Positions 21,371 to 34,105 of a stretch of DNA of 64,000 nucleotides are shown piece after piece. The notes beneath the pieces are model-generated. The model was not told the DNA's origin and did no database searches. It saw only the letters and a program-made list of their open reading frames with translations. The stretch spans positions 423,338-487,337 of the forward strand of contig JBDHAB010000001.1 in assembly GCA_039588295.1 (NCBI GenBank), in the 5' to 3' direction. Source of the stretch: Gemmatimonadota bacterium. Lineage in GTDB: Bacteria > Gemmatimonadota > Gemmatimonadetes > Gemmatimonadales > GWC2-71-9. The translations under genes and the position numbers were made by a program. The stretch's first letter is position 1, and the number at the start of each line of letters is the position of its first letter.

Positions 21371-21538
21371 TCAGGACGCCTGTTTGCCTTTGTAGACAGT
21401 GACAAGCCCCTTGATGATGAAGAAGGTCCCGAGGCCGTCAAAGAAGAGGTTGAAAAGGCTGAAATCGCCCAAGAAGACGGATCCGCCAAAGAAGAGACCG
21501 ATGGCGATCAGAACCACACCCGTGATGATATCCCGCAC
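21371..21538 (-). CDS. Small two-TM membrane protein (55 aa, missing from the ORF track)
   Basis: GTG start after GGGAGG; MRDIITGVVLIAIGLFFGGSVFLGDFSLFNLFFDGLGTFFIIKGLVTVYKGKQAS*. Confidence 0.7.
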   Translation of the reverse strand: MRDIITGVVLIAIGLFFGGSVFLGDFSLFNLFFDGLGTFFIIKGLVTVYKGKQAS

Positions 21539-21851: not shown

Positions 21852-24071
21852 GTGCGATTCCCGAGGCTGTTCGCTGCTCATGCGCTGACCAATACCTCAG
21901 GTCCCTTCGCGTTCGCGTGGGTCCGCAGGGCCATTCTGGCCGGGTGGTTGGCGGCGATGGTCGTGGCCGTCGGCGTCGGCGTCTTCGGATTTCGCATCGA
22001 CAACTCCGTTGGGGTGTGGTTCGCGGCGGATGATCCCGCGCTCGCGGACTATCGCCGCTTTCTGACGGATTTCGGGAACCGCGAGTGGATACTCGTGGCC
22101 CTGGAGCGCCACCCTGCCAATCGTCACGCTCGGGTCGCCGGTCGGGATGCGCTGGTCGCGACGCTGGGGCAGATGGATCATGTGCACCGGGTCCTCTCGT
22201 CCTCGGACTTCCCGGAGGAAAGTGATCTCGTCCGGAAGTTCCTGAAGCCGAACACGGAGAGTCCCTACGAGGCGCTGCTGCTCCAAGTCACCAACGACAT
22301 CGAGACGCAGGACGGATATCGCGAGGCGCTCGTCACCGAGATCCGGCGGGTCGCGCAGGCGTTTCCGACCATCGACAACGTACATGTTGCGGGTACGGCG
22401 GTGATCAACGGAGAGCTGAACCGTGCCGCCCGTCGGGACATGTTCCTCTTTTTCCCGGTCGTCGCCCTGTTCGTTGCCCTCTTGGGAGGCGTGATCTTCC
22501 GCAACGCGCGCGACACAGCCGTTCTGCTCAGCGTGTCGCTCGGGACGGTCGTCGGCACTGAAAGTCTTCTCATCGGCATTGGGTACCCGCTGAATATGAT
22601 CACCATCATGCTGCCGACGGTGCTCATCGCCCTCTCGGTGGCCGATGCGGTTCATCTGATCCATGCCTTTCACACCTTCCGCGCGAGCGTGGGAGACGCT
22701 GCGTCTGCCACCACCCGGGCGGTGAAGTCCATCGCCTGGCCCTGCGCCGGCACCAGTCTGACGACCATCGCGGGTTTCCTCGCCTTCTCCGGAAGCGACG
22801 TTCTCCCGGTCTTCCAGCTGGCGGTCTTTGGTGCGGTCGGCATCGCGATGGCCTGGGTGCTGACAATGACCGTCGCACCTGTCCTCCTCACGGTGCTGTG
22901 GCGGGAAACCCGGCGCCCGGAGCTCCCGGCTGCGGCGCTGGGGGAGCGACTCCTCGGACAGTGGTGGCGGTTTGCCGACCGGCACCCCCGCTGGATCGTT
23001 GCCGCGTTCTCGGTGGCAGCTGTCTTGTTGGTCGGCTTGGTGTCGTTGCGGGCCGATACGGACTACGTGAAGTTCTTCCGATCCGGGACCAGGGTTCCAC
23101 AGGACTACCAGGTGCTCCAGCGGGAGGGATTTCCCCAGAACCCACTCAACCTCGTACTCCGGTTGCCGGCGGGCGAATCCCCCCTCTCGCCGGAGTACTT
23201 GAGTCCCCTGCGGTCGTTTGCCAGCAGCTTGGAGACGCTTCCCGGTGTGCAATCGGTGCTGTCTCCGTTCGTCATGGCGAACGCGCCGGCTGCCATGGGC
23301 GACCAAGCGGCGAGCCACGGCGGCATGCTCTCCCGCCAGTCGGACCAGCTGCAGTTCGTCGTGATGATGGATCACACGAGCAGCCAAGAACTCTTCAAGC
23401 TGCTCCCGGAGATTCGGGCGTTGGCCCGGCGAGTCCTTCCGTCCGAAATGCGCCTGATCCCCACCGGGACCTCTCTCCTCTGGGCCCGCATGGACGACGG
23501 TGTCATCCGCACACAGAGGCAATCGTTGCTCATCGTGTCCGTGGTGTGCTTCGGCATTCTCGCCGTGCTGTTCCGCTCTCTCTGGTTGGCCGCGCTCGGT
23601 CTGGTGTTCAGCCTTTATCCGGTGGCCATGGTCCTGGGTCTGATGGGCCTGTGGCGTATCCCGGTGAACATCGCGACGGTGCTCATCGCCGGGATCGCTG
23701 TAGGGCTCGCCGTGGACGACACGATCCACGTCGTCCACACGTTCCAGGAGCTGCGCCGGCGGGGCATGGACCGCAGCAAAGCCTGTGAGGAGACCCTGGT
23801 CGCGGTGGGTCTGCGGATGGTGATGACGTCGTGCATTCTGGTGGGGTCGTTCGCCATCATGGGGCTCTCCGACTTCATGCCCACCTCGCAGTTCGGGCTT
23901 CTCAGCTCGCTCACCATCGTGCTGGCCCTCGCGGCGGACGCGACGCTTCTCCCCGTCGTTCTGGCGTGGCGCCGTCGAGAACCCGCTGGACAGCGCCGCA
24001 CCGATCGCGCACTGGCGGAGACCGTCGATGCCGACCCCGGGCTCTCGAGCCCAACTGCATGGGGAGGCTGA
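21852..24071 (+). CDS. MMPL/RND family transporter
   Basis: Two repeats of TM plus periplasmic loop plus TM bundle; SVADAVH, TTIAGF, GLAVDDTIH. Confidence 0.9.
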   Translation: MRFPRLFAAHALTNTSGPFAFAWVRRAILAGWLAAMVVAVGVGVFGFRIDNSVGVWFAADDPALADYRRFLTDFGNREWILVALERHPANRHARVAGRDALVATLGQMDHVHRVLSSSDFPEESDLVRKFLKPNTESPYEALLLQVTNDIETQDGYREALVTEIRRVAQAFPTIDNVHVAGTAVINGELNRAARRDMFLFFPVVALFVALLGGVIFRNARDTAVLLSVSLGTVVGTESLLIGIGYPLNMITIMLPTVLIALSVADAVHLIHAFHTFRASVGDAASATTRAVKSIAWPCAGTSLTTIAGFLAFSGSDVLPVFQLAVFGAVGIAMAWVLTMTVAPVLLTVLWRETRRPELPAAALGERLLGQWWRFADRHPRWIVAAFSVAAVLLVGLVSLRADTDYVKFFRSGTRVPQDYQVLQREGFPQNPLNLVLRLPAGESPLSPEYLSPLRSFASSLETLPGVQSVLSPFVMANAPAAMGDQAASHGGMLSRQSDQLQFVVMMDHTSSQELFKLLPEIRALARRVLPSEMRLIPTGTSLLWARMDDGVIRTQRQSLLIVSVVCFGILAVLFRSLWLAALGLVFSLYPVAMVLGLMGLWRIPVNIATVLIAGIAVGLAVDDTIHVVHTFQELRRRGMDRSKACEETLVAVGLRMVMTSCILVGSFAIMGLSDFMPTSQFGLLSSLTIVLALAADATLLPVVLAWRRREPAGQRRTDRALAETVDADPGLSSPTAWGG

Positions 24072-24072
24072 C

Positions 24073-27000
24073 ATGACGGACCCCTGGACCGGATCCACTT
24101 CCTATGCGGCCTACTGCCGCCCGAAGCTCTCGGGCCTCCTCGAGAGCCTGGGCCTCAATGTGGTGTTCACCAAGGCCCGGGGAGCCTACTTGTACGTGAG
24201 GGATGATGACGGGAACGAGGTGAGGGTGCTGGACCTCGTCGGTGGGTTCGGAGCCGGACTGCTGGGGCATAACAACCCCGAACTGAAAGAGCTTCTCAAG
24301 TCCGAGCTGGATGCGGACGTTCCGTTTCTCGTCCAGAGCTCCGAGCGTCGGGAAGCGGGCCGACTGGCCGAAAAGCTCAACCGGGTGCTGCCGACCCGAA
24401 CGCGATACCTGTGTCACCTGACCAATAGCGGCGCTGAGGCCGTCGAGGCGGCTTTGAAGCACGCGTACAAGGTGCGGTTCGATGCTCTCCGACGTCAGTT
24501 CGATCGCATCTCGCGGGACATCGAGCGGTTCTTCCACGCAACGGAGAGGGACCACCCGGACATCGAGATTCCGGGACACGACCGGGACCTCGGCAAGTTC
24601 CGTGACGATCTGGACGAACACAACCTTGCCCAATTCGAGCGCTTTCGGCAGAGGCCCGTGGTGCTGGCGTTCAAGGGCTCGTTCCACGGTAAGACCGCTA
24701 CGGCGCTCAAAGTCACATTCAACAAGACCTATCGGGAGGGGTTCGAAGGGCTGTCGGCCGTTCGTCCGGAGTTCATCGACTTTGCGGATGTCGGACGTCT
24801 CGACGAGATCCAGCGGGGCCACCAGATCGAATTCGTGGTGCCCAGGGTCGAGGACGGGCGGATCGTCGTGGAGAAGGTGTCCTCCACCAGGATCGTCGCG
24901 CTGTGCGTCGAGATCATCCAGGGCGAAGGCGGCATTCGGCCCATTCCGGACGCGGTCCTGCAGGATCTCGCCGTCCAGCGTGATCGCCTGACCATCCCGT
25001 ACCTCATCGACGAAATCCAGACGGGTTGCGGACGCACGGGCTCGTTTGTCGCCTACGGCGCCGGTCCTCTGCGGGAGATCGATCCCGAGTACGTGACCCT
25101 GAGCAAGGCGCTGGGCGGAGGGTTGGTGAAGATCGGAGCGGCCCTCATCCGGGAGGACATCTACGACCAGGATTTCGGGATCCTCCACACCTCGACGTTT
25201 GCCGAAGACGAAGTGGGGTGCATGGTCGCCAATCGGGTCGTGGACATCCTCACCCGTGACGACAACCGATTCATGAACGAGGTGGCCGAGAAGGGAGAAT
25301 ACCTCCTCGCCGGTTTGCGAACGCTCCAAGAGAGGTATCCCGACGTCGTCCGCGAGGTCCGGGGCCGGGGTCTCATGATCGGTGTGGAGTTCACCGACTT
25401 GGAGGACAAAGGTCCGCTGTTTCGGTTTGGCGTGCGCCAGGGATTCCTCTCCCTGCTCGTTGCCAGCTACCTGCTGCACCATCACCGGATTCGCCTGCTA
25501 GCTCCGGTGACGACGCTCATGAAGGGGAATCCTGGCAAGAAGCGGCTGTCCGTCCTGCGGATCCAGCCGGCCGCGGACATTGCTCGGGAGGACATGGACC
25601 ACGTCCTGAGCGCGTTAGACGAGGTCTTCCAGGTCATCTCCCGAAACAACGATGGTGTCCTGGTCGGCCACTTGGTTGGAGTGCCCGTGTCGGTCGCGGA
25701 ACGAAAAGTCCCGCTTTGGGTGGACGTTGCGCATCCGCTGATTGATCGACGGGTGGATTTCGACGCCCGTGTAGGATTCGTCGTTCACCCCGCGCATCTC
25801 GAGCAGGTGCTCCGCTACTACTTCCCGAGCCTCGAGGGGCGGGTCGAGCACGAGCGACTGGCGATCTGGTGGTCACAGTTGGCCAGATTCCTCGAGCCGG
25901 ACGTGATCCACACCGATTACATCAGCTCCGACGGCTTCGTGGTCGAAGTCAACTTCGTCTCGGTTCCGTACCTGCCACGCCATCTCGTCGAGGTCTACAC
26001 CAAGGGCAGACGCATGCCCGATCCCAAGCGCCTTGACCTGCTGCGACTACAGGAGATTCAAGACAAGATCCAGGATGCCGTGACCACGGCCAAGGAACTG
26101 GGGGACGATCACATTCCGACCGCGATGGTTGGTCTGGGTGCCTACACGTCGATCGTCACCGATCGTGGAACCACCGTCAACGACTACGAGGTACCCGTCA
26201 CGACGGGTAATGCCTACACGGCCGGCCTGATGGTGCAGGGCATTCTGAAAGCGGCGGAACTCCAGCACATCGCGTTGGCGGACGCGAAAACGGCGGTGGT
26301 GGGAGCCGCCGGGAACATCGGGTCGGTGTTGGCGGCCATCCTCTCCAGCCATGTGGGGAGCTTGAAGCTCATCGGCCGAGAATCCGGCGACGGTGTCCGG
26401 CGGCTGCGAAGGACCCGCCTGCAGTGTCTTCTCTACCTGGCCCGCAAGGCGCGCGAGCAGTTCCGCGAAACGGGTTCGCTGCACGATGTCAGGGTTGGGG
26501 GACTCGGCGACCGCATTCTCCGAGACATCGTGCTTCCGGGACTGCGCTCTTCCGAAAGCGCCCCGGTTTGGGAGCGCACGGAAGATTGGCTGCGAGGAAA
26601 GGATGAGGATGTACGCGAGCTGGGAAGCCTGCTGGAGAACGCCCTCGATCGACAGGGTGGCATGGAGAACAATGCGTACATCTCGATCCACGTGTCGGTG
26701 CAGGCGGTCCGGGATTGTGACGTGGTCACCATTGCGACGAACTCGCCGGAAGGTCGTCTCATTACGCCCGAGCTCGTGAAGAAGGGTGCGGTGGTCTCGT
26801 GTGCGTCGGTGCCGTCGAACCTCAGCGTGGCCTTTAAGGATCATCTGGAGGAGTATCTCGTCTTTGACGGAGGCTACGCCCGTCTGCCCGAAGATCACGA
26901 AATCCATTGCATCGGGCTGCCCGAGAATGGGATGACCCCCGGCTGTCTCAGTGAAACCATCCTGCTCGGGTTCGAGGGACTGAACGGTTCCTTCGCCAGG

Positions 27001-27150
27001 GGAGCCATCGAGCCGGCGCAGGTGGATCAGGCCCTGGGAATGGCCGAGCAGTATGGCTTTGCGCTGGGTGATTTCAAGCTGAACGGAACAGCCTTCCTCG
27101 AGGGCGCTCTTTCGGGGAACGGGAATGGAACGAAAGGACAGAAACCATGA
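24073..27150 (+). CDS. Class III PLP aminotransferase fused to a C-terminal acyl-ACP/thioester reductase-like domain
   Basis: NSGAEAVEAALK, SFHGKT, QGEGG, DEIQTGCGRTG, LSKALGGG; then GFVVHP, GLGAYTSIVT, TTGNAYT, GAAGNIG, GCLSETILL. Confidence 0.88.
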   Translation: MTDPWTGSTSYAAYCRPKLSGLLESLGLNVVFTKARGAYLYVRDDDGNEVRVLDLVGGFGAGLLGHNNPELKELLKSELDADVPFLVQSSERREAGRLAEKLNRVLPTRTRYLCHLTNSGAEAVEAALKHAYKVRFDALRRQFDRISRDIERFFHATERDHPDIEIPGHDRDLGKFRDDLDEHNLAQFERFRQRPVVLAFKGSFHGKTATALKVTFNKTYREGFEGLSAVRPEFIDFADVGRLDEIQRGHQIEFVVPRVEDGRIVVEKVSSTRIVALCVEIIQGEGGIRPIPDAVLQDLAVQRDRLTIPYLIDEIQTGCGRTGSFVAYGAGPLREIDPEYVTLSKALGGGLVKIGAALIREDIYDQDFGILHTSTFAEDEVGCMVANRVVDILTRDDNRFMNEVAEKGEYLLAGLRTLQERYPDVVREVRGRGLMIGVEFTDLEDKGPLFRFGVRQGFLSLLVASYLLHHHRIRLLAPVTTLMKGNPGKKRLSVLRIQPAADIAREDMDHVLSALDEVFQVISRNNDGVLVGHLVGVPVSVAERKVPLWVDVAHPLIDRRVDFDARVGFVVHPAHLEQVLRYYFPSLEGRVEHERLAIWWSQLARFLEPDVIHTDYISSDGFVVEVNFVSVPYLPRHLVEVYTKGRRMPDPKRLDLLRLQEIQDKIQDAVTTAKELGDDHIPTAMVGLGAYTSIVTDRGTTVNDYEVPVTTGNAYTAGLMVQGILKAAELQHIALADAKTAVVGAAGNIGSVLAAILSSHVGSLKLIGRESGDGVRRLRRTRLQCLLYLARKAREQFRETGSLHDVRVGGLGDRILRDIVLPGLRSSESAPVWERTEDWLRGKDEDVRELGSLLENALDRQGGMENNAYISIHVSVQAVRDCDVVTIATNSPEGRLITPELVKKGAVVSCASVPSNLSVAFKDHLEEYLVFDGGYARLPEDHEIHCIGLPENGMTPGCLSETILLGFEGLNGSFARGAIEPAQVDQALGMAEQYGFALGDFKLNGTAFLEGALSGNGNGTKGQKP

Positions 27151-28985
27151 CGAGCCAAGTGCGGTCTACGCTCGCGGCGTCGCCGGACGAACGACACATC
27201 GGTTCGGTGGCGGACATCGTGCGCGCCAGGCTTCCGTCCTACGGGAGGCAACCCGCCATCCGCTACGACGATGGAAGCAGCTACAAGACCCTGAGTTTCA
27301 TGGACGTTCTGAACAACATCAGGCGGGCAGTCCAAGTCTTCGCTGCGACCGAACCCCGGCAGCACATCGTCTGCACGTTCGTCAAGAACCGGCCGGAGTG
27401 GGACATGCTGGCGCTGGCCAGCATCCATACTGGGAATATCCTGTTTCCCCTCGACACGAAGATGCACGACGCCGAGCTGGCGCACCTCCTGCAGCAGAGT
27501 CCTCCGGATATGGTGCTGGTGAGCCCCGCTTCCCGCCTACGCATGAAGGGGGTCCTCAAGCAGCTCGGCCTCCGTCCGCGGATCCTGATCGCCGACCTCT
27601 ATCGTGTGTTCGAGGACAGCGACGCTCCCAGCATGGGGTACCTGGAGGATCACGAGCAGCGAATGTCCTCCTTACCGTTTCCCGTGGACGCCACGTTTCC
27701 GGAACCCAGCGAGCGGCTGCGCCAGCCCGATCTGGTGCTCGGCCACTACGCGACATCCGGCACTACGAGTCTACCGAAGCTGGTCCGCATCACTCACGCA
27801 AACATCGTGGCGCAAGTGAACGAGGGCATGGACGTCATGAACCTACGGAAGACCGAAGACCTTCTCAATATCGGCCCCTACACCCACATCGCCACGCTGC
27901 TCGAGTTTCTCGTGACCAAGGCCAGGGGTTTCTGTGTGACGTACTTCACACGCGAACCGGATGAAGACAAGGTCTTGGAGAACGAGATCAAGAAGTTGAA
28001 GAAGCTCGGGGTCCGCATCAAGGCGCTGATGGCCGTTCCGAAGTTCTGGATCTACATCATGAAGGAAGTGCTGGAGGAGATGAAGGACAAAGCGATCTGG
28101 AAGGATCTCTATGAACATCTGACGAGCATCGAGCGGCACGCCAAGCTCCACGATATCGGGACGTTGGACAAGGCGAAGCTCACCGCGATCCGGATCTTCC
28201 TTCGCAACAAGATGGGGGGACACTTCAGCTACGGCATCTCATCCTCCACCCGAATCGATCCTGGCGTGATCGAGATCTTTGCGAAACTCGGCGTGACGGT
28301 GATCGACGTCTACGGCGCGACCGAAGCCTCGGGCTTCATCGCCAGGAACCGCCTCAACGAGAGCCGGCGGGGCTCCTGTGGCCGATTGATCGCGGCGTTG
28401 GAATTCAAGGTCGACAATCCGAGGATCATTCCGGGACGCGAGCACCCGGTGGGTGAACTCCTTGTGAAGGGCGCGACCATTTGCCCGGGGTACGTGGGCC
28501 AGGAAGATGGATCGCACATTGACGCAGACGGGTTCTATCACACCGGCGATCTCGCCTGGGTGGACGAGGACGGATGGGTGTTCCTGGTGGGACGGGAGAA
28601 GGAGTTGATGGAGTGGACCGACGGGAGCCTGATAGACCGAATGCACCTGTCGAATCTCCTGGTTCGTTCTATCTGGGTCAAAGATGCTCTCGTAACGAGG
28701 CTGAACGATGAGGACCACCTCAGCATGTTTGTCTTGCCCGATTGGCCTCGCATCGAGAAGGACGCGGGATTTCGCCAGTCCTTGGAGACCGGCGTTCGGC
28801 GCGAAGAGGCCCTCAAGGCCCGACTGCTGGAGGCTGCGGCGTACGCGCAATCGCTGGCAGATATGACCGCGCGTCTCTCGACGGAGAAGATCTACCTGTT
28901 GGCGAGGAAACTGGAGCGCACGCCGACGCACAAGATCAAGTTCATCAGGGAGTTGGAACGGCTCGATCTCGAGTCGTACGTCTGA
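27147..28985 (+). CDS. AMP-dependent acyl ligase (long-chain acyl-CoA synthetase-like)
   Basis: TSGTTSLPK, YGATE, TGD, GREKE, RTPTHKIK; ATGA overlap with the upstream gene. Confidence 0.88.
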   Translation: MTSQVRSTLAASPDERHIGSVADIVRARLPSYGRQPAIRYDDGSSYKTLSFMDVLNNIRRAVQVFAATEPRQHIVCTFVKNRPEWDMLALASIHTGNILFPLDTKMHDAELAHLLQQSPPDMVLVSPASRLRMKGVLKQLGLRPRILIADLYRVFEDSDAPSMGYLEDHEQRMSSLPFPVDATFPEPSERLRQPDLVLGHYATSGTTSLPKLVRITHANIVAQVNEGMDVMNLRKTEDLLNIGPYTHIATLLEFLVTKARGFCVTYFTREPDEDKVLENEIKKLKKLGVRIKALMAVPKFWIYIMKEVLEEMKDKAIWKDLYEHLTSIERHAKLHDIGTLDKAKLTAIRIFLRNKMGGHFSYGISSSTRIDPGVIEIFAKLGVTVIDVYGATEASGFIARNRLNESRRGSCGRLIAALEFKVDNPRIIPGREHPVGELLVKGATICPGYVGQEDGSHIDADGFYHTGDLAWVDEDGWVFLVGREKELMEWTDGSLIDRMHLSNLLVRSIWVKDALVTRLNDEDHLSMFVLPDWPRIEKDAGFRQSLETGVRREEALKARLLEAAAYAQSLADMTARLSTEKIYLLARKLERTPTHKIKFIRELERLDLESYV

Positions 28986-29303: not shown

Positions 29304-31403
29304 ATGGAACAGCCTCGTAGTGATCGTTCGAGAGCCGAGGAATGGCGGCATAAGCTTCTCCTTTGCGTATCGGGCCTGCTGCTCTTCGAGACGCTCACGG
29401 GCCTATCCGTGTTCTTGCTTCCGTTTTCAGTCTCGAACCAAGTCATGGTCCTGCTCCATACCGTGGTCGGGCTCGTGTGCCTTGTGCCATTTGCCTGGTA
29501 TCAGACTCGCCATTGGCTCATCTATCGGCCGCTACGCATGTCGCACGTGAAGCTCACCGGCTATTTCGCTATGGTGGCGACTGTCATCGCCATCGTATCC
29601 GGCCTGGTGCTGACCGTTCAGGCCTTGTGGGCAACGCGTATCAGCTACGCGTGGGACTTGATCCACATCGTTGCCACGTTTGCGCTGATCGCGTCCGTCG
29701 TTCCCCACCTCTTGGTCCTCGTCAATCGTGAAGTGCGAGCGGCCCGTGTCGGCAACGGCGATTCGGCACTCGGCGCCACAAAGAGCTTTGGCCTGGGCTC
29801 GTTCCTGGTCGCGGCGATACCGTTCGTGGCCGTTGCGCTGGTAGCGTACTGGTATGAGCCGCCGACGATGGCGAACGACTTCCCAGCTGACTACAGCTAT
29901 CTGTATGGCCCAGACCGGCCGTTCGCGCCCAGCCTCGCGCGTACGAACACAGGCACGGCGTTTGACGCACGATCCATGAGCGGTTCGGAATCTTGTGGAA
30001 CGGCACGGTGTCACGAGCAGATCGTGAAAGAGTGGCAGGTCAGTGCCCACCGTTACTCTGCGATGGACGCGGCTTTCCAGTCGGTGCAGGAGGTGATGGC
30101 CCAACAGAATGGCGCCGAGTCGACGCGCTACTGCGGCGGCTGTCACGATCCCGTCTCGCTGTTTTCGGGGGCCAAGAACGTCTTCACCGAAGAGCTGACG
30201 AACCTCGCCGGATATCAGGAAGGTGTTTCCTGCATCGTTTGCCATGCAATTGAGGAAACCGACGTCAAGGGGAACGCGAACTACGTCATCACGCAACCGA
30301 ACCGCTACATGTTCGAGCTTGATGAGGGAAAGACGGCCCGGTTCTTCAGAGACTTTCTCCTCCGGGCCTATCCTCGCAATCACGTGGAGACCCTCCAGCA
30401 CCGGTTGTTCAAGAGCCCAGAGTTCTGCGCGGCGTGCCACAAGCAGTTCATCGACGAGGAGATCAACCAGGTCGGATGGGTGCAGCTCCAGAACCAGTTT
30501 GACAATTGGAAGAACAGCAGATGGAACGAGCCGGGGGACCCGCGCGAGACGATCGAGTGCCGCGAATGCCATATGCCGTTGACGGAATCCCACGATCCCT
30601 CCAGTGGAGACGAGCTCGATTACAATCGCTCGGCGCGTGACGGCAAGCACCGCAGCCATCGGTTTCTGGCGGCCAATCAGTTCATGCCACTGGCTCTGAA
30701 GCTCGAAGGGGCGCAGGAGCACGTGGATCTGACGGAGCAGTGGCTGCGGGGTGAGACCGAGATCCCCGAGATTGCCGACAAGTGGCGCTCGGGCCCCGCC
30801 GTTCCGCTGGAGCTTGTGGTCCCGGATTCGGTGAACCCTGGGGAGGACGTGAAGGTTCAAGCAGTTGTCACCAACAACAAGGTCGGCCACGACTTCCCCA
30901 CTGGGCCGCTCGATATCATCCAGGCGTGGGTGGAGATCATCGTGAAAGACCAGGCTGGCAACATCGTCTTTCAGTCGGGGAGCAGAGACGAGAGGCATTT
31001 CATTGAACCCGGGTCCTTCATCTTCAAGGCAGAACCCGTCGATCAGTCCGGCAACCTGATCGACCGCCATAATCTCTGGGAAATGGTCGGGGTGCGATAT
31101 CGCCGCTCCATGTTTCCCGGGGCGTCCGACAGAGCGGAATTCGGCTTCTCGTGTCCTGCGACGACGGTCCCTGCGCAAGGCCGTGAGGGCGGCGGGCCGC
31201 CATCCCTCGACACAGACGCGGAATTCGAGGCGCCCGGCCAGCAAGCGACGACGTTGCACGTATCGGCGAAGTTGCTCTACAGGAAGGCAGACCAATTTCT
31301 CCTGAACTTCCTGTTCGGTGAGGACGCCAACCTGACCGCGCCGATCACGGTCATGTCGGAGGACGAGAAGACAATCGTCGTGAGGCCGCGGGAATCGTTA
31401 TAG
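29304..31403 (+). CDS. Membrane-anchored multiheme c-type cytochrome (c554-like)
   Basis: About 5 N-terminal TMs carrying His; CGTARCH, CGGCH, CIVCH, CAACH, CRECH; GHDFPTG. Confidence 0.85.
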   Translation: MEQPRSDRSRAEEWRHKLLLCVSGLLLFETLTGLSVFLLPFSVSNQVMVLLHTVVGLVCLVPFAWYQTRHWLIYRPLRMSHVKLTGYFAMVATVIAIVSGLVLTVQALWATRISYAWDLIHIVATFALIASVVPHLLVLVNREVRAARVGNGDSALGATKSFGLGSFLVAAIPFVAVALVAYWYEPPTMANDFPADYSYLYGPDRPFAPSLARTNTGTAFDARSMSGSESCGTARCHEQIVKEWQVSAHRYSAMDAAFQSVQEVMAQQNGAESTRYCGGCHDPVSLFSGAKNVFTEELTNLAGYQEGVSCIVCHAIEETDVKGNANYVITQPNRYMFELDEGKTARFFRDFLLRAYPRNHVETLQHRLFKSPEFCAACHKQFIDEEINQVGWVQLQNQFDNWKNSRWNEPGDPRETIECRECHMPLTESHDPSSGDELDYNRSARDGKHRSHRFLAANQFMPLALKLEGAQEHVDLTEQWLRGETEIPEIADKWRSGPAVPLELVVPDSVNPGEDVKVQAVVTNNKVGHDFPTGPLDIIQAWVEIIVKDQAGNIVFQSGSRDERHFIEPGSFIFKAEPVDQSGNLIDRHNLWEMVGVRYRRSMFPGASDRAEFGFSCPATTVPAQGREGGGPPSLDTDAEFEAPGQQATTLHVSAKLLYRKADQFLLNFLFGEDANLTAPITVMSEDEKTIVVRPRESL

Positions 31404-31406
31404 ACG

Positions 31407-33239
31407 ATGGCGTCCGCGATACCACGACGTCGAAGGCTGCTTCTCCGGACGGCAGGCCTCGGCGCACTCTTCGTCGCTGGGGCAGTCGTCGCTGTGTGGC
31501 TCGCCGTGAGGCCGGAACCCACTTACCGGCCGGGTGAGGGCGTTGCAGGGCTGAAAGCCGACCTTGCGCGCCCGGTCCCGGCTGATCACCCGCGGATCAC
31601 TTTCGCGAACGTGACCCAAGAAGCGGGGATCGATTTCCCGCACTTCGCTGGACAACGTTCATCGCAGCTGCCGGAAGACATGGGATCCGGTGCGGCTTGG
31701 GGTGACTTCGACAATGATGGCTGGTTGGACCTCTACGTCGTCAACGAGGTCGGACCGCTGACGTCCGTGGAGGGGGAGGAGGTGGCGCAGTCTCCGGCAC
31801 ATGCGGCGTTGTATCGCAACGCCGGCGACGGCACGTTTCGCGAGGTCAGTGCGGAGGCCGGCGTTCAGTTCCGCGGTTGGGGGATGGGGGTGGCTTGGGG
31901 AGACTACGACAACGACGGCTGGCTCGATCTCTTCGTGTCGGCGTACGGCGAAAGCGTGCTGTATCAGAACAATGGAGATGGCACGTTCGCCGACAGGACC
32001 CAGGAGGCGGGCCTCGGTGGGCGTCCTGGCTTCTGGGCGGGAGTGTGTTGGGGAGACTACGATCGAGATGGCTTTCTCGACCTCTACGTGACGGGATACG
32101 TCAAGTATCGATACCTAGCGGACCAACAACGATCGCTGCAATACGATGTCGAGCAACCCGCCGGCATCAACCCATCGTCGTTCGCGCCAGAACGGAATCT
32201 CCTGTATCGCAACAACGGGGACGGGACCTTCAGTGAGGTGGCGGCCCAGGCCGGTGTGTCGGGTGAAATCGGGCGAAGTTTGGGCGCCGTGTGGGCCGAC
32301 TTCGACGATGACGGCTGGCCCGATCTCTATGTTGCGAACGACGTTTCCGACAACGTGCTGTACTGGAACCAGCGAGATGGGACCTTCAGGGATATCAGCC
32401 TCGCCGCTCGGGTCGCGGACTACCGCGGCGCCATGGGAATCGCGGTTGGCGACTGGGATCGGGATGCGGACGTGGACATGTTCGTCACGCACTGGATAGC
32501 GCAGGAAAACGCGCTGTACAGCAACCTCCGGTCGGAGTTGCGTGCCCTCGGTTCCGACACGCTCCAGCCTCTGCAATTCATAGACGTGGCAGACCGATAT
32601 GGACTGGGGCAAGTTGCACTGGACTTTATCGGATGGGGAACGTCCTTCATCGATTACGACAACGACGGCCAGCTGGATCTCTTCGTCGTCAACGGAAGCA
32701 CGTTACAGCAGGATGACGATCCACGACTCCTCGTACCGATGACCGACCAAGTGTTCTGGAATCGCGGGGCAGACGACGGATTCTACGATGTGTCTTCGGT
32801 GAGCGGTGAGTACTTCGGGCACGCCTATGTGGGTCGGGGCGCAGCGTTCGGAGATTACGACAATGACGGTGACGTCGACGTCTTTGTGGTGAATAACGTC
32901 GGGCCAGGTATCTTGTTGCGCAACGAAGGTGGCAATCGGAATCAGTGGCTGCTGGTGCAGCTTGCCGGAACGCAGAGTAACCGGTCGGCCGTTGGTGCGA
33001 GACTGCGCCTCGTTGCTGGCGAGACCGTCCAGATCCGTGAGGTGGGTGCACAGAGCCCGTACCTTTCGCAGAACAGTCTCGTTCAGCATTTCGGTCTCGG
33101 CGCACTGCAGGCGGCGGACACGCTGGAGATCAGATGGCCCAGCGGATTGCACCAGATCGTGCTACGGCCGCTATCCAATCAGATCCTGCGTGTCTCGGAG
33201 GGGGCGGCGGTTCCGAACGCCGCCGAGCAACCGCGGTGA
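31407..33239 (+). CDS. CRTAC1-family FG-GAP repeat protein with ASPIC/UnbV domain
   Basis: Repeated WGDFDNDGWLDL motifs; SNRSAVGAR, HFGLG, IRWPSG. Confidence 0.92.
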   Translation: MASAIPRRRRLLLRTAGLGALFVAGAVVAVWLAVRPEPTYRPGEGVAGLKADLARPVPADHPRITFANVTQEAGIDFPHFAGQRSSQLPEDMGSGAAWGDFDNDGWLDLYVVNEVGPLTSVEGEEVAQSPAHAALYRNAGDGTFREVSAEAGVQFRGWGMGVAWGDYDNDGWLDLFVSAYGESVLYQNNGDGTFADRTQEAGLGGRPGFWAGVCWGDYDRDGFLDLYVTGYVKYRYLADQQRSLQYDVEQPAGINPSSFAPERNLLYRNNGDGTFSEVAAQAGVSGEIGRSLGAVWADFDDDGWPDLYVANDVSDNVLYWNQRDGTFRDISLAARVADYRGAMGIAVGDWDRDADVDMFVTHWIAQENALYSNLRSELRALGSDTLQPLQFIDVADRYGLGQVALDFIGWGTSFIDYDNDGQLDLFVVNGSTLQQDDDPRLLVPMTDQVFWNRGADDGFYDVSSVSGEYFGHAYVGRGAAFGDYDNDGDVDVFVVNNVGPGILLRNEGGNRNQWLLVQLAGTQSNRSAVGARLRLVAGETVQIREVGAQSPYLSQNSLVQHFGLGALQAADTLEIRWPSGLHQIVLRPLSNQILRVSEGAAVPNAAEQPR

Positions 33240-34105
33240 AGCGCGTCGCGGGCTTCCTCCTTGCGGTGGGTGTTCTCTTTGTGGCAGTCACCGTCTTGAA
33301 GAGTAGGTCGTCCGGGACGCCCGGCAGTGTCGATTCCGCTGGCATGTCAGTCGAGGATCGGGACCGGATCCGGCGTTTTTGGGAGACCTACCGCCTGGCC
33401 ACCGAACACCGCATCGCGGGACGGTCGCGGGAAGCAGCGGACGCGTACACCCGTGCGCTGGCACTCAATCCCGAGCATCAAGATGCGCTTTACTACCTGG
33501 GAAACATGGACTTCGACCTGGGGAACCTCGCCGCCGCCGAGCACGCCTGGCAGCGGTTGGTGGAGATCGATCCCACCAGCGCTCGCGCACATTCGCAGTT
33601 GGGCACTCTGTATTTCTGTGTCGGCGAGCAGGAGATGCTCCAGCCCGAGAGAGCCACGGCCGAGTTTCAACGAGCGTTGACGATCAACCGCGAGGAGACG
33701 GGCCCACTCCTTCGTCTCGGCGAGATTGCCCTGGTTCTGGGAGATCTGGAGAATGCGCTTTCCTACTTCGATGCGGTTGTCGGTTCGGACTACTCCAGCG
33801 TCGAGGCGCACTTCTACAAGGGCTACATCGCATGGAAGGCGGGCGCGTTGGACCGAGCATCGGAGCTACTGGCAGCAGCGACCCGCCACGCACAGCCGGC
33901 AGAGCCCGCGGAAGGCGTGCCAGGCGAAGGCGATACTCGAGCTGGTGCCGCTCCTATGGTGACCGCCCCCGTCAGGTGCGGGGCGATGCGGGCTCGTGTG
34001 GACGACCTCACAGCGTTGGATGAAGATGTCGCTCGCCGCGTGGGACCGATCTATCGGGAGTTCGACGAGCTGCTGAAGGACGTGCGGCGGAGGCTCCCCC
34101 ACTAA
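33236..34105 (+). CDS. Membrane-anchored TPR protein
   Basis: [20 protein letters not shown] repeats; GTGA overlap with the upstream stop. Confidence 0.85.

Follow-up and report, generated by a model that had tools for sequence, protein, structure and literature searches.

Fusions of a class-III transaminase with a thioester reductase (TA-TR fusions) are already known from TamH, KecF and PigE. Those in the literature that we found feed pigments and alkaloids, and none of them is set in a minimal lipid-export cassette. According to the accessible parts of the reports cited here and below, TamH of Pseudoalteromonas tunicata (PtTamH) has K340, G707xxG710xxG713 and C887, uses NADH and Glu to make dodecylamine from TamA-bound C12, and gives no product or amine from C12-CoA (PMC9594044). 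TamA resembles the fatty acyl-AMP ligases (FAALs); it also carries a fused acyl carrier protein (ACP) (PMC5939613). KecF (koreenceine) and PP_2782 share a design of transaminase and acyl-ACP reductase (TA-AAR) (PMC6498172, PMC10829540), PigE (prodigiosin) is reported to reduce a thioester (PMC8341465), and a Streptomyces tambjamine route employs separate enzymes and an ACP (10.1101/2025.08.11.669332). We analyzed a stretch of 64,000 nucleotides from a Gemmatimonadota bacterium (GCA_039588295.1, contig JBDHAB010000001.1), hereafter the window, in which a TA-TR fusion of the TamH type stands between an MMPL transporter gene and a gene for an adenylating enzyme (the ligase). The cassette is a real, conserved operon, a variant of known enzyme logic with a dedicated, uncharacterised ligase. 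We lean towards the ligase being a terminal amide ligase, with a two-chain N-alkyl fatty amide as the product of the cassette, and put the chance of this slightly below even.

The cassette and its fusion enzyme

The elements of the cassette, in window coordinates, are the following.

21852..24071, + strand: MMPL/HAE3-type RND lipid transporter, 739 amino acids (aa), two repeats (Pfam PF03176 twice); start codon provisional
24073..27150, + strand: class-III transaminase/acyl-ACP-reductase-like (TA-TR) fusion, 1025 aa, TamH architecture
24073..25662, + strand: transaminase domain, aa 1-530, closest solved relative CrmG (phmmer, Foldseek)
25105-25107, + strand: K345, the lysine for pyridoxal phosphate (PLP)
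25756..27072, + strand: thioester reductase domain, aa 562-1000 (matches to 6JZQ/6JZU and 4PPM)
26302-26322, + strand: G744xxG747xxG750 of the reductase domain
26944-26946, + strand: predicted catalytic C958
27147..28985, + strand: adenylating (ANL) enzyme, 612 aa, without a carrier domain (AMP-binding Pfam)
27948..27986, + strand: family-specific acidic loop, ligase aa 268-280 (alignment)

The three genes follow one another on the + strand in the order MMPL, fusion, ligase, as read from the list of open reading frames (ORFs) and the sequence. The TGA of the MMPL gene (24069-24071) is separated by a single C from the ATG of the fusion (24073), a gap of 1 nt, and the fusion and ligase genes overlap in an ATGA (27147-27150). 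Counting from ATG 24073 gives the fusion its length of 1025 aa; in the ORF list it begins at 24028, which adds 15 codons. The same order was found in all eight other genomes whose loci show both neighbors (G070, G306, G402, G921, G911, G1626, G1634 and G758, the last of the family Polyangiaceae), and the grouping thus goes beyond chance. A preliminary description of this DNA had claimed three tightly coupled genes for an MMPL protein, an aminotransferase-reductase fusion and an adenylating ligase. The coupling was confirmed by the two junctions and the recurring order, the identities by Pfam and homologue matches, and the neighborhood survey that the description had proposed as a check found the genes together in 8/8 informative genomes. 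Not counted here are L001, which has MMPL and fusion on a contig that stops short of the ligase, G402's second copy, which is truncated, and two duplicates. Flanking genes vary among the cassette loci, where the loci extend that far.

The ligase and the fusion form a constant pair. Every genome match of the ligase family lies directly 3' of a fusion (8/8: G000, which is the genome of the window, G070, G402, G921, G911, G758, G401 and G556). Among the best 120 listed homologues of each protein, 38 of the 119 fusion homologues for which a contig size is given have a ligase homologue on a contig of exactly that size; the chance mean is 0.5 and the maximum 5. The identities of fusion and ligase over 39 pairs, in which kin are not independent, correlate with r 0.86, and a Bacteroidota pair has consecutive accessions (WKN34984/WKN34985).

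The transporter gave two MMPL Pfam matches (E 6e-29), and each repeat carries a transmembrane Asp motif, SVADAVH (263-268) and AVDDTIH (621-626), which places it in the MMPL/HAE3 class. Its match to TIGR00921 (E 2e-37) is below the profile cut-off, and the HAE3 and HpnN profiles match it below their own cut-offs. A simple scan gave 11 hydrophobic segments, and close orthologues are 66-74% identical. Going by gene linkage, the transporter would export the product of the cassette; a neutral two-chain lipid is a plausible MMPL cargo. Two variants of the locus were noted. The Polyangiaceae-family genome (L174:3598-4953) has a single-repeat, half-size MMPL, and the truncated second copy in G402 (L003:9153-12600, also L192) consists of the MMPL 3' half and the first 208 codons of the fusion. 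The latter is possibly an assembly artefact, with N runs close by; it is followed by an ORF that we take to resemble a recombinase.

The fusion matches Aminotran_3 in Pfam (E 4e-61). Its transaminase domain finds CrmG (5DDS) in phmmer with E 2e-67, and the model of this domain (pLDDT 86.7) superimposes on CrmG with a Foldseek TM-score of 0.89 by target length. The C-terminal half matches the cyanobacterial acyl-ACP reductase 6JZQ (E 2e-8) and PigE's N-terminal domain, 4PPM (E 5e-11). The second-ranked Atlas feature of the reductase domain is long-chain acyl-ACP reductase, and the reductase assignment was built on sequence and Atlas features together. K345, D313 and Q316 of the transaminase, and G744/G747/G750, C958 and E961 of the reductase, are invariant in 48/48 aligned homologues, which were drawn from the best 120 listed. 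The near homologues that carry names (70-73% identity) are labelled Gemmatimonadota. An N-terminal class-III transaminase with its PLP lysine is thus joined to a C-terminal AAR-like domain with GxxGxxG and Cys. The claim of a TamH-type reductase-transaminase is borne out by this architecture and the intact catalytic residues; the likeness is one of architecture and residue set, PtTamH itself not being part of the alignment. Gene 2 likely turns an acyl thioester into an aldehyde and the aldehyde into an amine, and we hold this with good confidence from sequence. By analogy with characterised relatives, reduction would proceed through Cys958 and transamination through PLP.

The ligase family and the step it may catalyse

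The ligase matches AMP-binding in Pfam (E 5e-40) and reaches no NCBIfam cut-off; no FAAL family is among its best 25 NCBIfam matches. It is 15-18% identical to FAALs and lacks an insertion after A5. A TamA-type ligase was rejected, as gene 3 is not a FAAL and there is no ACP. The best 120 homologues listed are at least 53% identical, with a range of 54-83% inside the family. Long-chain acyl-CoA synthetases (FadD11/ACSL type) and the adenylation (A) domains of carboxylic acid reductases (CARs) share its core motifs and a helical insertion, but the ligase is no more than 24% identical to the ordinary acyl-CoA synthetases compared and sits on its own long branch. A profile search over 1.84 billion representatives returned one full-length member at 952 bits, then fragments, then single-domain proteins at about 180 bits. 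No fused form of the family occurs among the best 150 representatives, in which long proteins score at most 263 bits. By sequence the family would descend from long-chain acyl-CoA synthetases and yet stand as a separate, uncharacterised one. It looks undescribed: in open-licence PMC and bioRxiv, Table S4 of PMC10829540 apart, we found no description of the cassette, the ligase family or the product.

The adenylation motifs of the ligase are intact in the manner of ACSL enzymes (A3, A4 His, YGxTE, TGD and A10 Lys). On the acceptor side, the ordinary SGGAPL is replaced by SSSxxD and the A8 PxxIE by D(P/R)xxxSN, both family-wide. The loop at 268-280 has a net charge of -4 to -7 in 38/38 aligned members and, as placed by alignment with a FAAL, probably lies at the entrance of the acceptor or CoA pocket. 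CoA binding needs Arg/Lys, going by the accessible description (PMC8460268). ANL domains are able to acylate amines (PMC6677021, PMC10804368). The amide bond synthetases McbA and ShABS are comparable in the chemistry proposed for the ligase, the capture of an acyl-adenylate by an amine, but act on aryl acids, and the change of A4 His to Asp in McbA (D201), linked to amine activation, is absent from the cassette ligase (PMC10804368).

The role of the ligase can be judged against an extended cluster found in Kangiella taiwanensis (L002:8317-21566) and a second genome of its family (L178:5132-18373). The gene order is FAAL, fusion, ligase, ACP, 2Fe-2S/FAD reductase, MMPL, membrane desaturase/hydroxylase, LolA-like protein and FabH, and a divergent hydrolase and a TetR gene are also present. 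The ligase of the extended cluster is 56-57% identical to that of the cassette, above the transaminase (49-52%) and reductase (41-45%) domains of the Kangiella clade; the MMPL is only 25-27% identical. The FAAL-type ligase and ACP are the functional equivalent of TamA. FAAL relatives share contig size with 16/62 distant-clade fusions and 0/57 nearer ones, the query being one Kangiella FAAL that divergent FAALs could escape, and FAAL-linked fusions are confined to one part of the tree (unrooted, midpoint-drawn). Relatives of the Kangiella FAAL (42-45%) were seen in Pseudomonas chlororaphis subsp. aurantiaca (P0302), Pseudoalteromonas byunsanensis (P0353) and Nitrospira (P0265). One Kangiella is named among PP_2782-like polyketide synthase (PKS) clusters, with a gene set that differs by description (PMC10829540); we found no paper on the extended cluster in open-licence PMC and bioRxiv.

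In the amide reading, the fusion would reduce a fatty-acyl thioester to the aldehyde and transaminate it to the primary amine. The ligase might then adenylate a second acid and join it to this amine as the last-acting amide synthetase, and transport of the product across the inner membrane would fall to the MMPL protein. In the minimal cassette, housekeeping acyl-ACP or acyl-CoA might provide the thioester; in the Kangiella-type cluster, the FAAL-loaded carrier might do so. We favor this role because the ligase is kept, and outconserves both fusion domains, where a loader of acid onto ACP is already present; because PtTamH rejects C12-CoA and AAR-type domains prefer acyl-ACP (PMC9594044, PMC7744569); and because the genome already has ordinary acyl-CoA ligases (three long-chain acyl-CoA-ligase-like genes) and the AcpP of fatty acid synthesis. 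The altered acceptor-side motifs and acidic loop, where CoA binding would need Arg/Lys, the capacity of ANL domains to acylate amines, and the constancy of the ligase-fusion pair argue in the same direction. So does the Bacillota type of distant TA-TR locus, which shows no ligase among the scanned neighbors. More tentatively still, the cassette may be a self-contained three-gene pathway to a bacterial membrane lipid of a new class, an N-alkyl fatty amide that resembles a ceramide or a wax, with the ligase, of a family not recognised before, as a fatty-amine N-acyl ligase. As part of the same proposal, proteobacteria such as Kangiella would make a form tailored by hydroxylation or unsaturation, for which a FAAL, an ACP, a membrane di-iron enzyme and a LolA-like carrier have been added.

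Several observations weigh against an amide ligase. The ancestry of the enzyme is thioester-forming, and the proteins closest to it outside the family are acyl-CoA/ACP synthetases and ligase-acyltransferase fusions. His247 (A4) is kept in 38/38 members and Gly493 (A8) in 37/38. In Foldseek, luciferases come first by E-value, and the top TM-scores among the rows listed (0.71-0.72) belong to CAR A domains, which feed a reductase; the likeness is in fold only, the ligase being a single domain and the CAR A domain being fused to carrier and reductase. A basic helix follows the acidic loop (+5.6 on average), and the entrance may not be acidic on balance. The FabH of the extended cluster could need an acyl-CoA primer, hence the retention of the ligase there, each of these genomes having another FabH elsewhere; and the extended form is known from two clusters of one family.

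These points bear on a rival that we regard as possible but somewhat doubtful, in which the ligase supplies the thioester as acyl-CoA or acyl-AcpP, the fusion yields a fatty amine in free form, and this amine is exported or passed on by the MMPL protein. The cyanobacterial Aas makes acyl-ACP. Besides the ACSL ancestry, the retained A2, A3, A5, A7 and A10 motifs, His247 and Gly493, and the TM-scores to CAR A domains, it is favored by the ligase being the only linked activator of an acid: the FAAL profile gave no FAAL-grade match in the genome of the window and, among five other cassette genomes, one unlinked match and none at E 1e-40 in the other four. AAR-type domains, further, can accept acyl-CoA (PMC7744569, PMC10829540). 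Against it stand the rejection of C12-CoA by PtTamH, the ordinary ligases already in the genome, the retention of the ligase beside FAAL and ACP, and the changed A8 and SGGAPL motifs. The preliminary description had proposed a stand-alone route from acid through acyl-CoA and aldehyde to amine. The anatomy for thioester reduction and transamination upholds its later steps, and the absence of a carrier from the cassette agrees with its stand-alone character. The supply of acyl-CoA by the ligase fared less well, for the PtTamH result and the retention beside FAAL and ACP speak against it; nor is a free amine established as the end product, since a ligase step after the amine fits at least equally.

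A third possibility, which we rate as improbable, is that the ligase hands the acyl-adenylate directly to the reductase at Cys958, so that acid would become amine with neither CoA nor ACP. LuxE and LuxC relay acyl groups in a manner that is similar in outline. The missing carrier of the minimal cassette, the strict pairing of ligase and fusion with ATGA coupling, and the changed acceptor motifs agree with such a relay. Nevertheless, no fused form of the ligase family was seen among the best 150 representatives, its C-terminal domain has no conserved Cys, and the Kangiella clusters do have a carrier. A complex prediction for ligase aa 36-604 with reductase aa 564-994 scored 0.17 against a mark of 0.32 and was given no weight in the conclusions.

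Should the ligase prove to be an amide synthetase, the cassette would define, together with a genetic marker, a new nitrogen lipid; it would also supply candidates for the genes behind unidentified aminolipids and open a route to N-alkyl amides that takes two enzymes. Should it make acyl-CoA, the fusion would be a CoA-accepting TamH; since PtTamH depends on a carrier of its own, such an enzyme would be of use in fatty-amine biocatalysis. Direct tests are within reach, the extended form being present in a cultured species, Kangiella taiwanensis.

Distribution and distant fusions

The cassette is rare and patchy across scattered bacteria. It was found in 3/401 genomes of a phylum sample, 2/151 relatives (0/8 in its own genus), 3/201 genomes of one sample (one a duplicate) and 1/201 of another, 4/31 of a sample in which all four belong to one genus, and, around Kangiella, 2/41 and 1/121. 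The ligase was present in 0/351 genomes of one gammaproteobacterial order, 0/251 of a planctomycete-centred phylum sample and two small genome sets (0/5 and 0/3), and it was not found in the plasmids or viral contigs searched. Generic aminotransferase-pattern scans (2 of 64 collection parts) gave at least 160 loci, with three close relatives among those listed.

Such patchiness (3/401) would also suit a catabolic cassette for uptake or tolerance of environmental alkylamines, which would be deaminated to the aldehyde and then oxidised to acyl-CoA in a CoA-dependent step, both reactions being reversible in principle by established chemistry. We consider this very improbable. The TA-TR fusions characterised or proposed in the reports at hand (TamH, KecF, PP_2782) are biosynthetic, the ligase would be needless, and the FAAL, ACP and FabH of the extended cluster serve to build acyl chains.

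More distant TA-TR fusions have other surroundings. Near those at L041 and L060 (28%) are genes for desaturases, a ferritin-like di-iron protein, a fusion of MMPL with LolA and an amino-acid permease; this is another lipid-type cluster. Those at L004 and L007 lie beside PPDK_N/PEP-utilizer proteins, presumably of PigC/TamQ-like architecture, and DUF3419, with a FAAL too at L007; a 1378-aa frame at L004 was rejected as a ligase fusion, its N-terminal 561 aa having no Pfam match. The Bacillota-type fusions (L009, L018, L027, L057, L082) have housekeeping genes around them, and the scanned neighbors include neither a ligase nor a carrier.

Surroundings of the cassette and comparison with known systems

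Upstream of the MMPL gene the genes are in opposite orientation. A 55-aa hydrophobic ORF (21371-21538, - strand), divergent from the cassette and preceded by a strong Shine-Dalgarno-like AGGGAGG, is probably a gene for a small membrane protein. Downstream, 318 bp separate the ligase from the next gene at 29304, where genes for a membrane-anchored multihaem c cytochrome, an FG-GAP/ASPIC propeller and TPR proteins follow (29304-34105, + strand). These were rejected as cassette members on account of the gap and the lack of a match in any related locus. A Pfam scan of eight flanking genes found them unrelated to the cassette, and scans for promoters and terminators gave counts close to those of chance (3 vs 1.0 and 4 vs 4.9, respectively). 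AMP-binding has seven matches in the genome, the ligase being the sole one on the cassette contig. The statement that no ACP or nonribosomal peptide synthetase gene is nearby holds, as the three PP-binding matches of the genome are all on other contigs, with none on the cassette contig or in gene 3. For its PKS and pyrrole part, no ketosynthase or pyrrole gene was seen among the scanned flanking genes, no family-level search having been made for either. Elsewhere in the genome, an operon (G000:C11:18691-22754) has an adenylation enzyme and an 82-aa carrier protein, and its neighboring ORFs resemble, by eye, an acyltransferase and an acyl-CoA dehydrogenase. This 82-aa protein is a possible carrier for the cassette, though unlinked.

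PigE shares both domains with the fusion (NF053554, E 2e-81, far under the 850-bit cut-off), but their order is reversed and the setting is a pyrrole pathway. KecF and PP_2782 have the same domain order, with reductive release and then transamination proposed. In the accessible parts of the reports they belong to type II PKS clusters, which contain an ACP and ketosynthases, and lead to cyclic alkaloids, and the minimal cassette is without these; a koreenceine-type cluster was rejected, with no ACP or ketosynthase in the cassette or scanned flanks (ketosynthases not searched by family). A tambjamine or prodiginine cluster was likewise rejected for want of a FAAL-ACP didomain and of a linked TamQ/PigC-like condensing enzyme, PF01326 matches being solely on contigs C52 and C7. 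The closest counterpart is the TamA/TamH pair of tambjamine YP1, with which the cassette shares a CrmG-like omega-transaminase at the N-terminus, an AAR-like reductase with GxxGxxG and Cys at the C-terminus, and an adenylating enzyme within the cluster. The two differ in that TamA is FAAL-like with an ACP, whereas the cassette ligase is ACSL-derived without a carrier, and in that the cassette has no TamQ/PigC-like condensing gene beside it and includes an MMPL gene in its operon.

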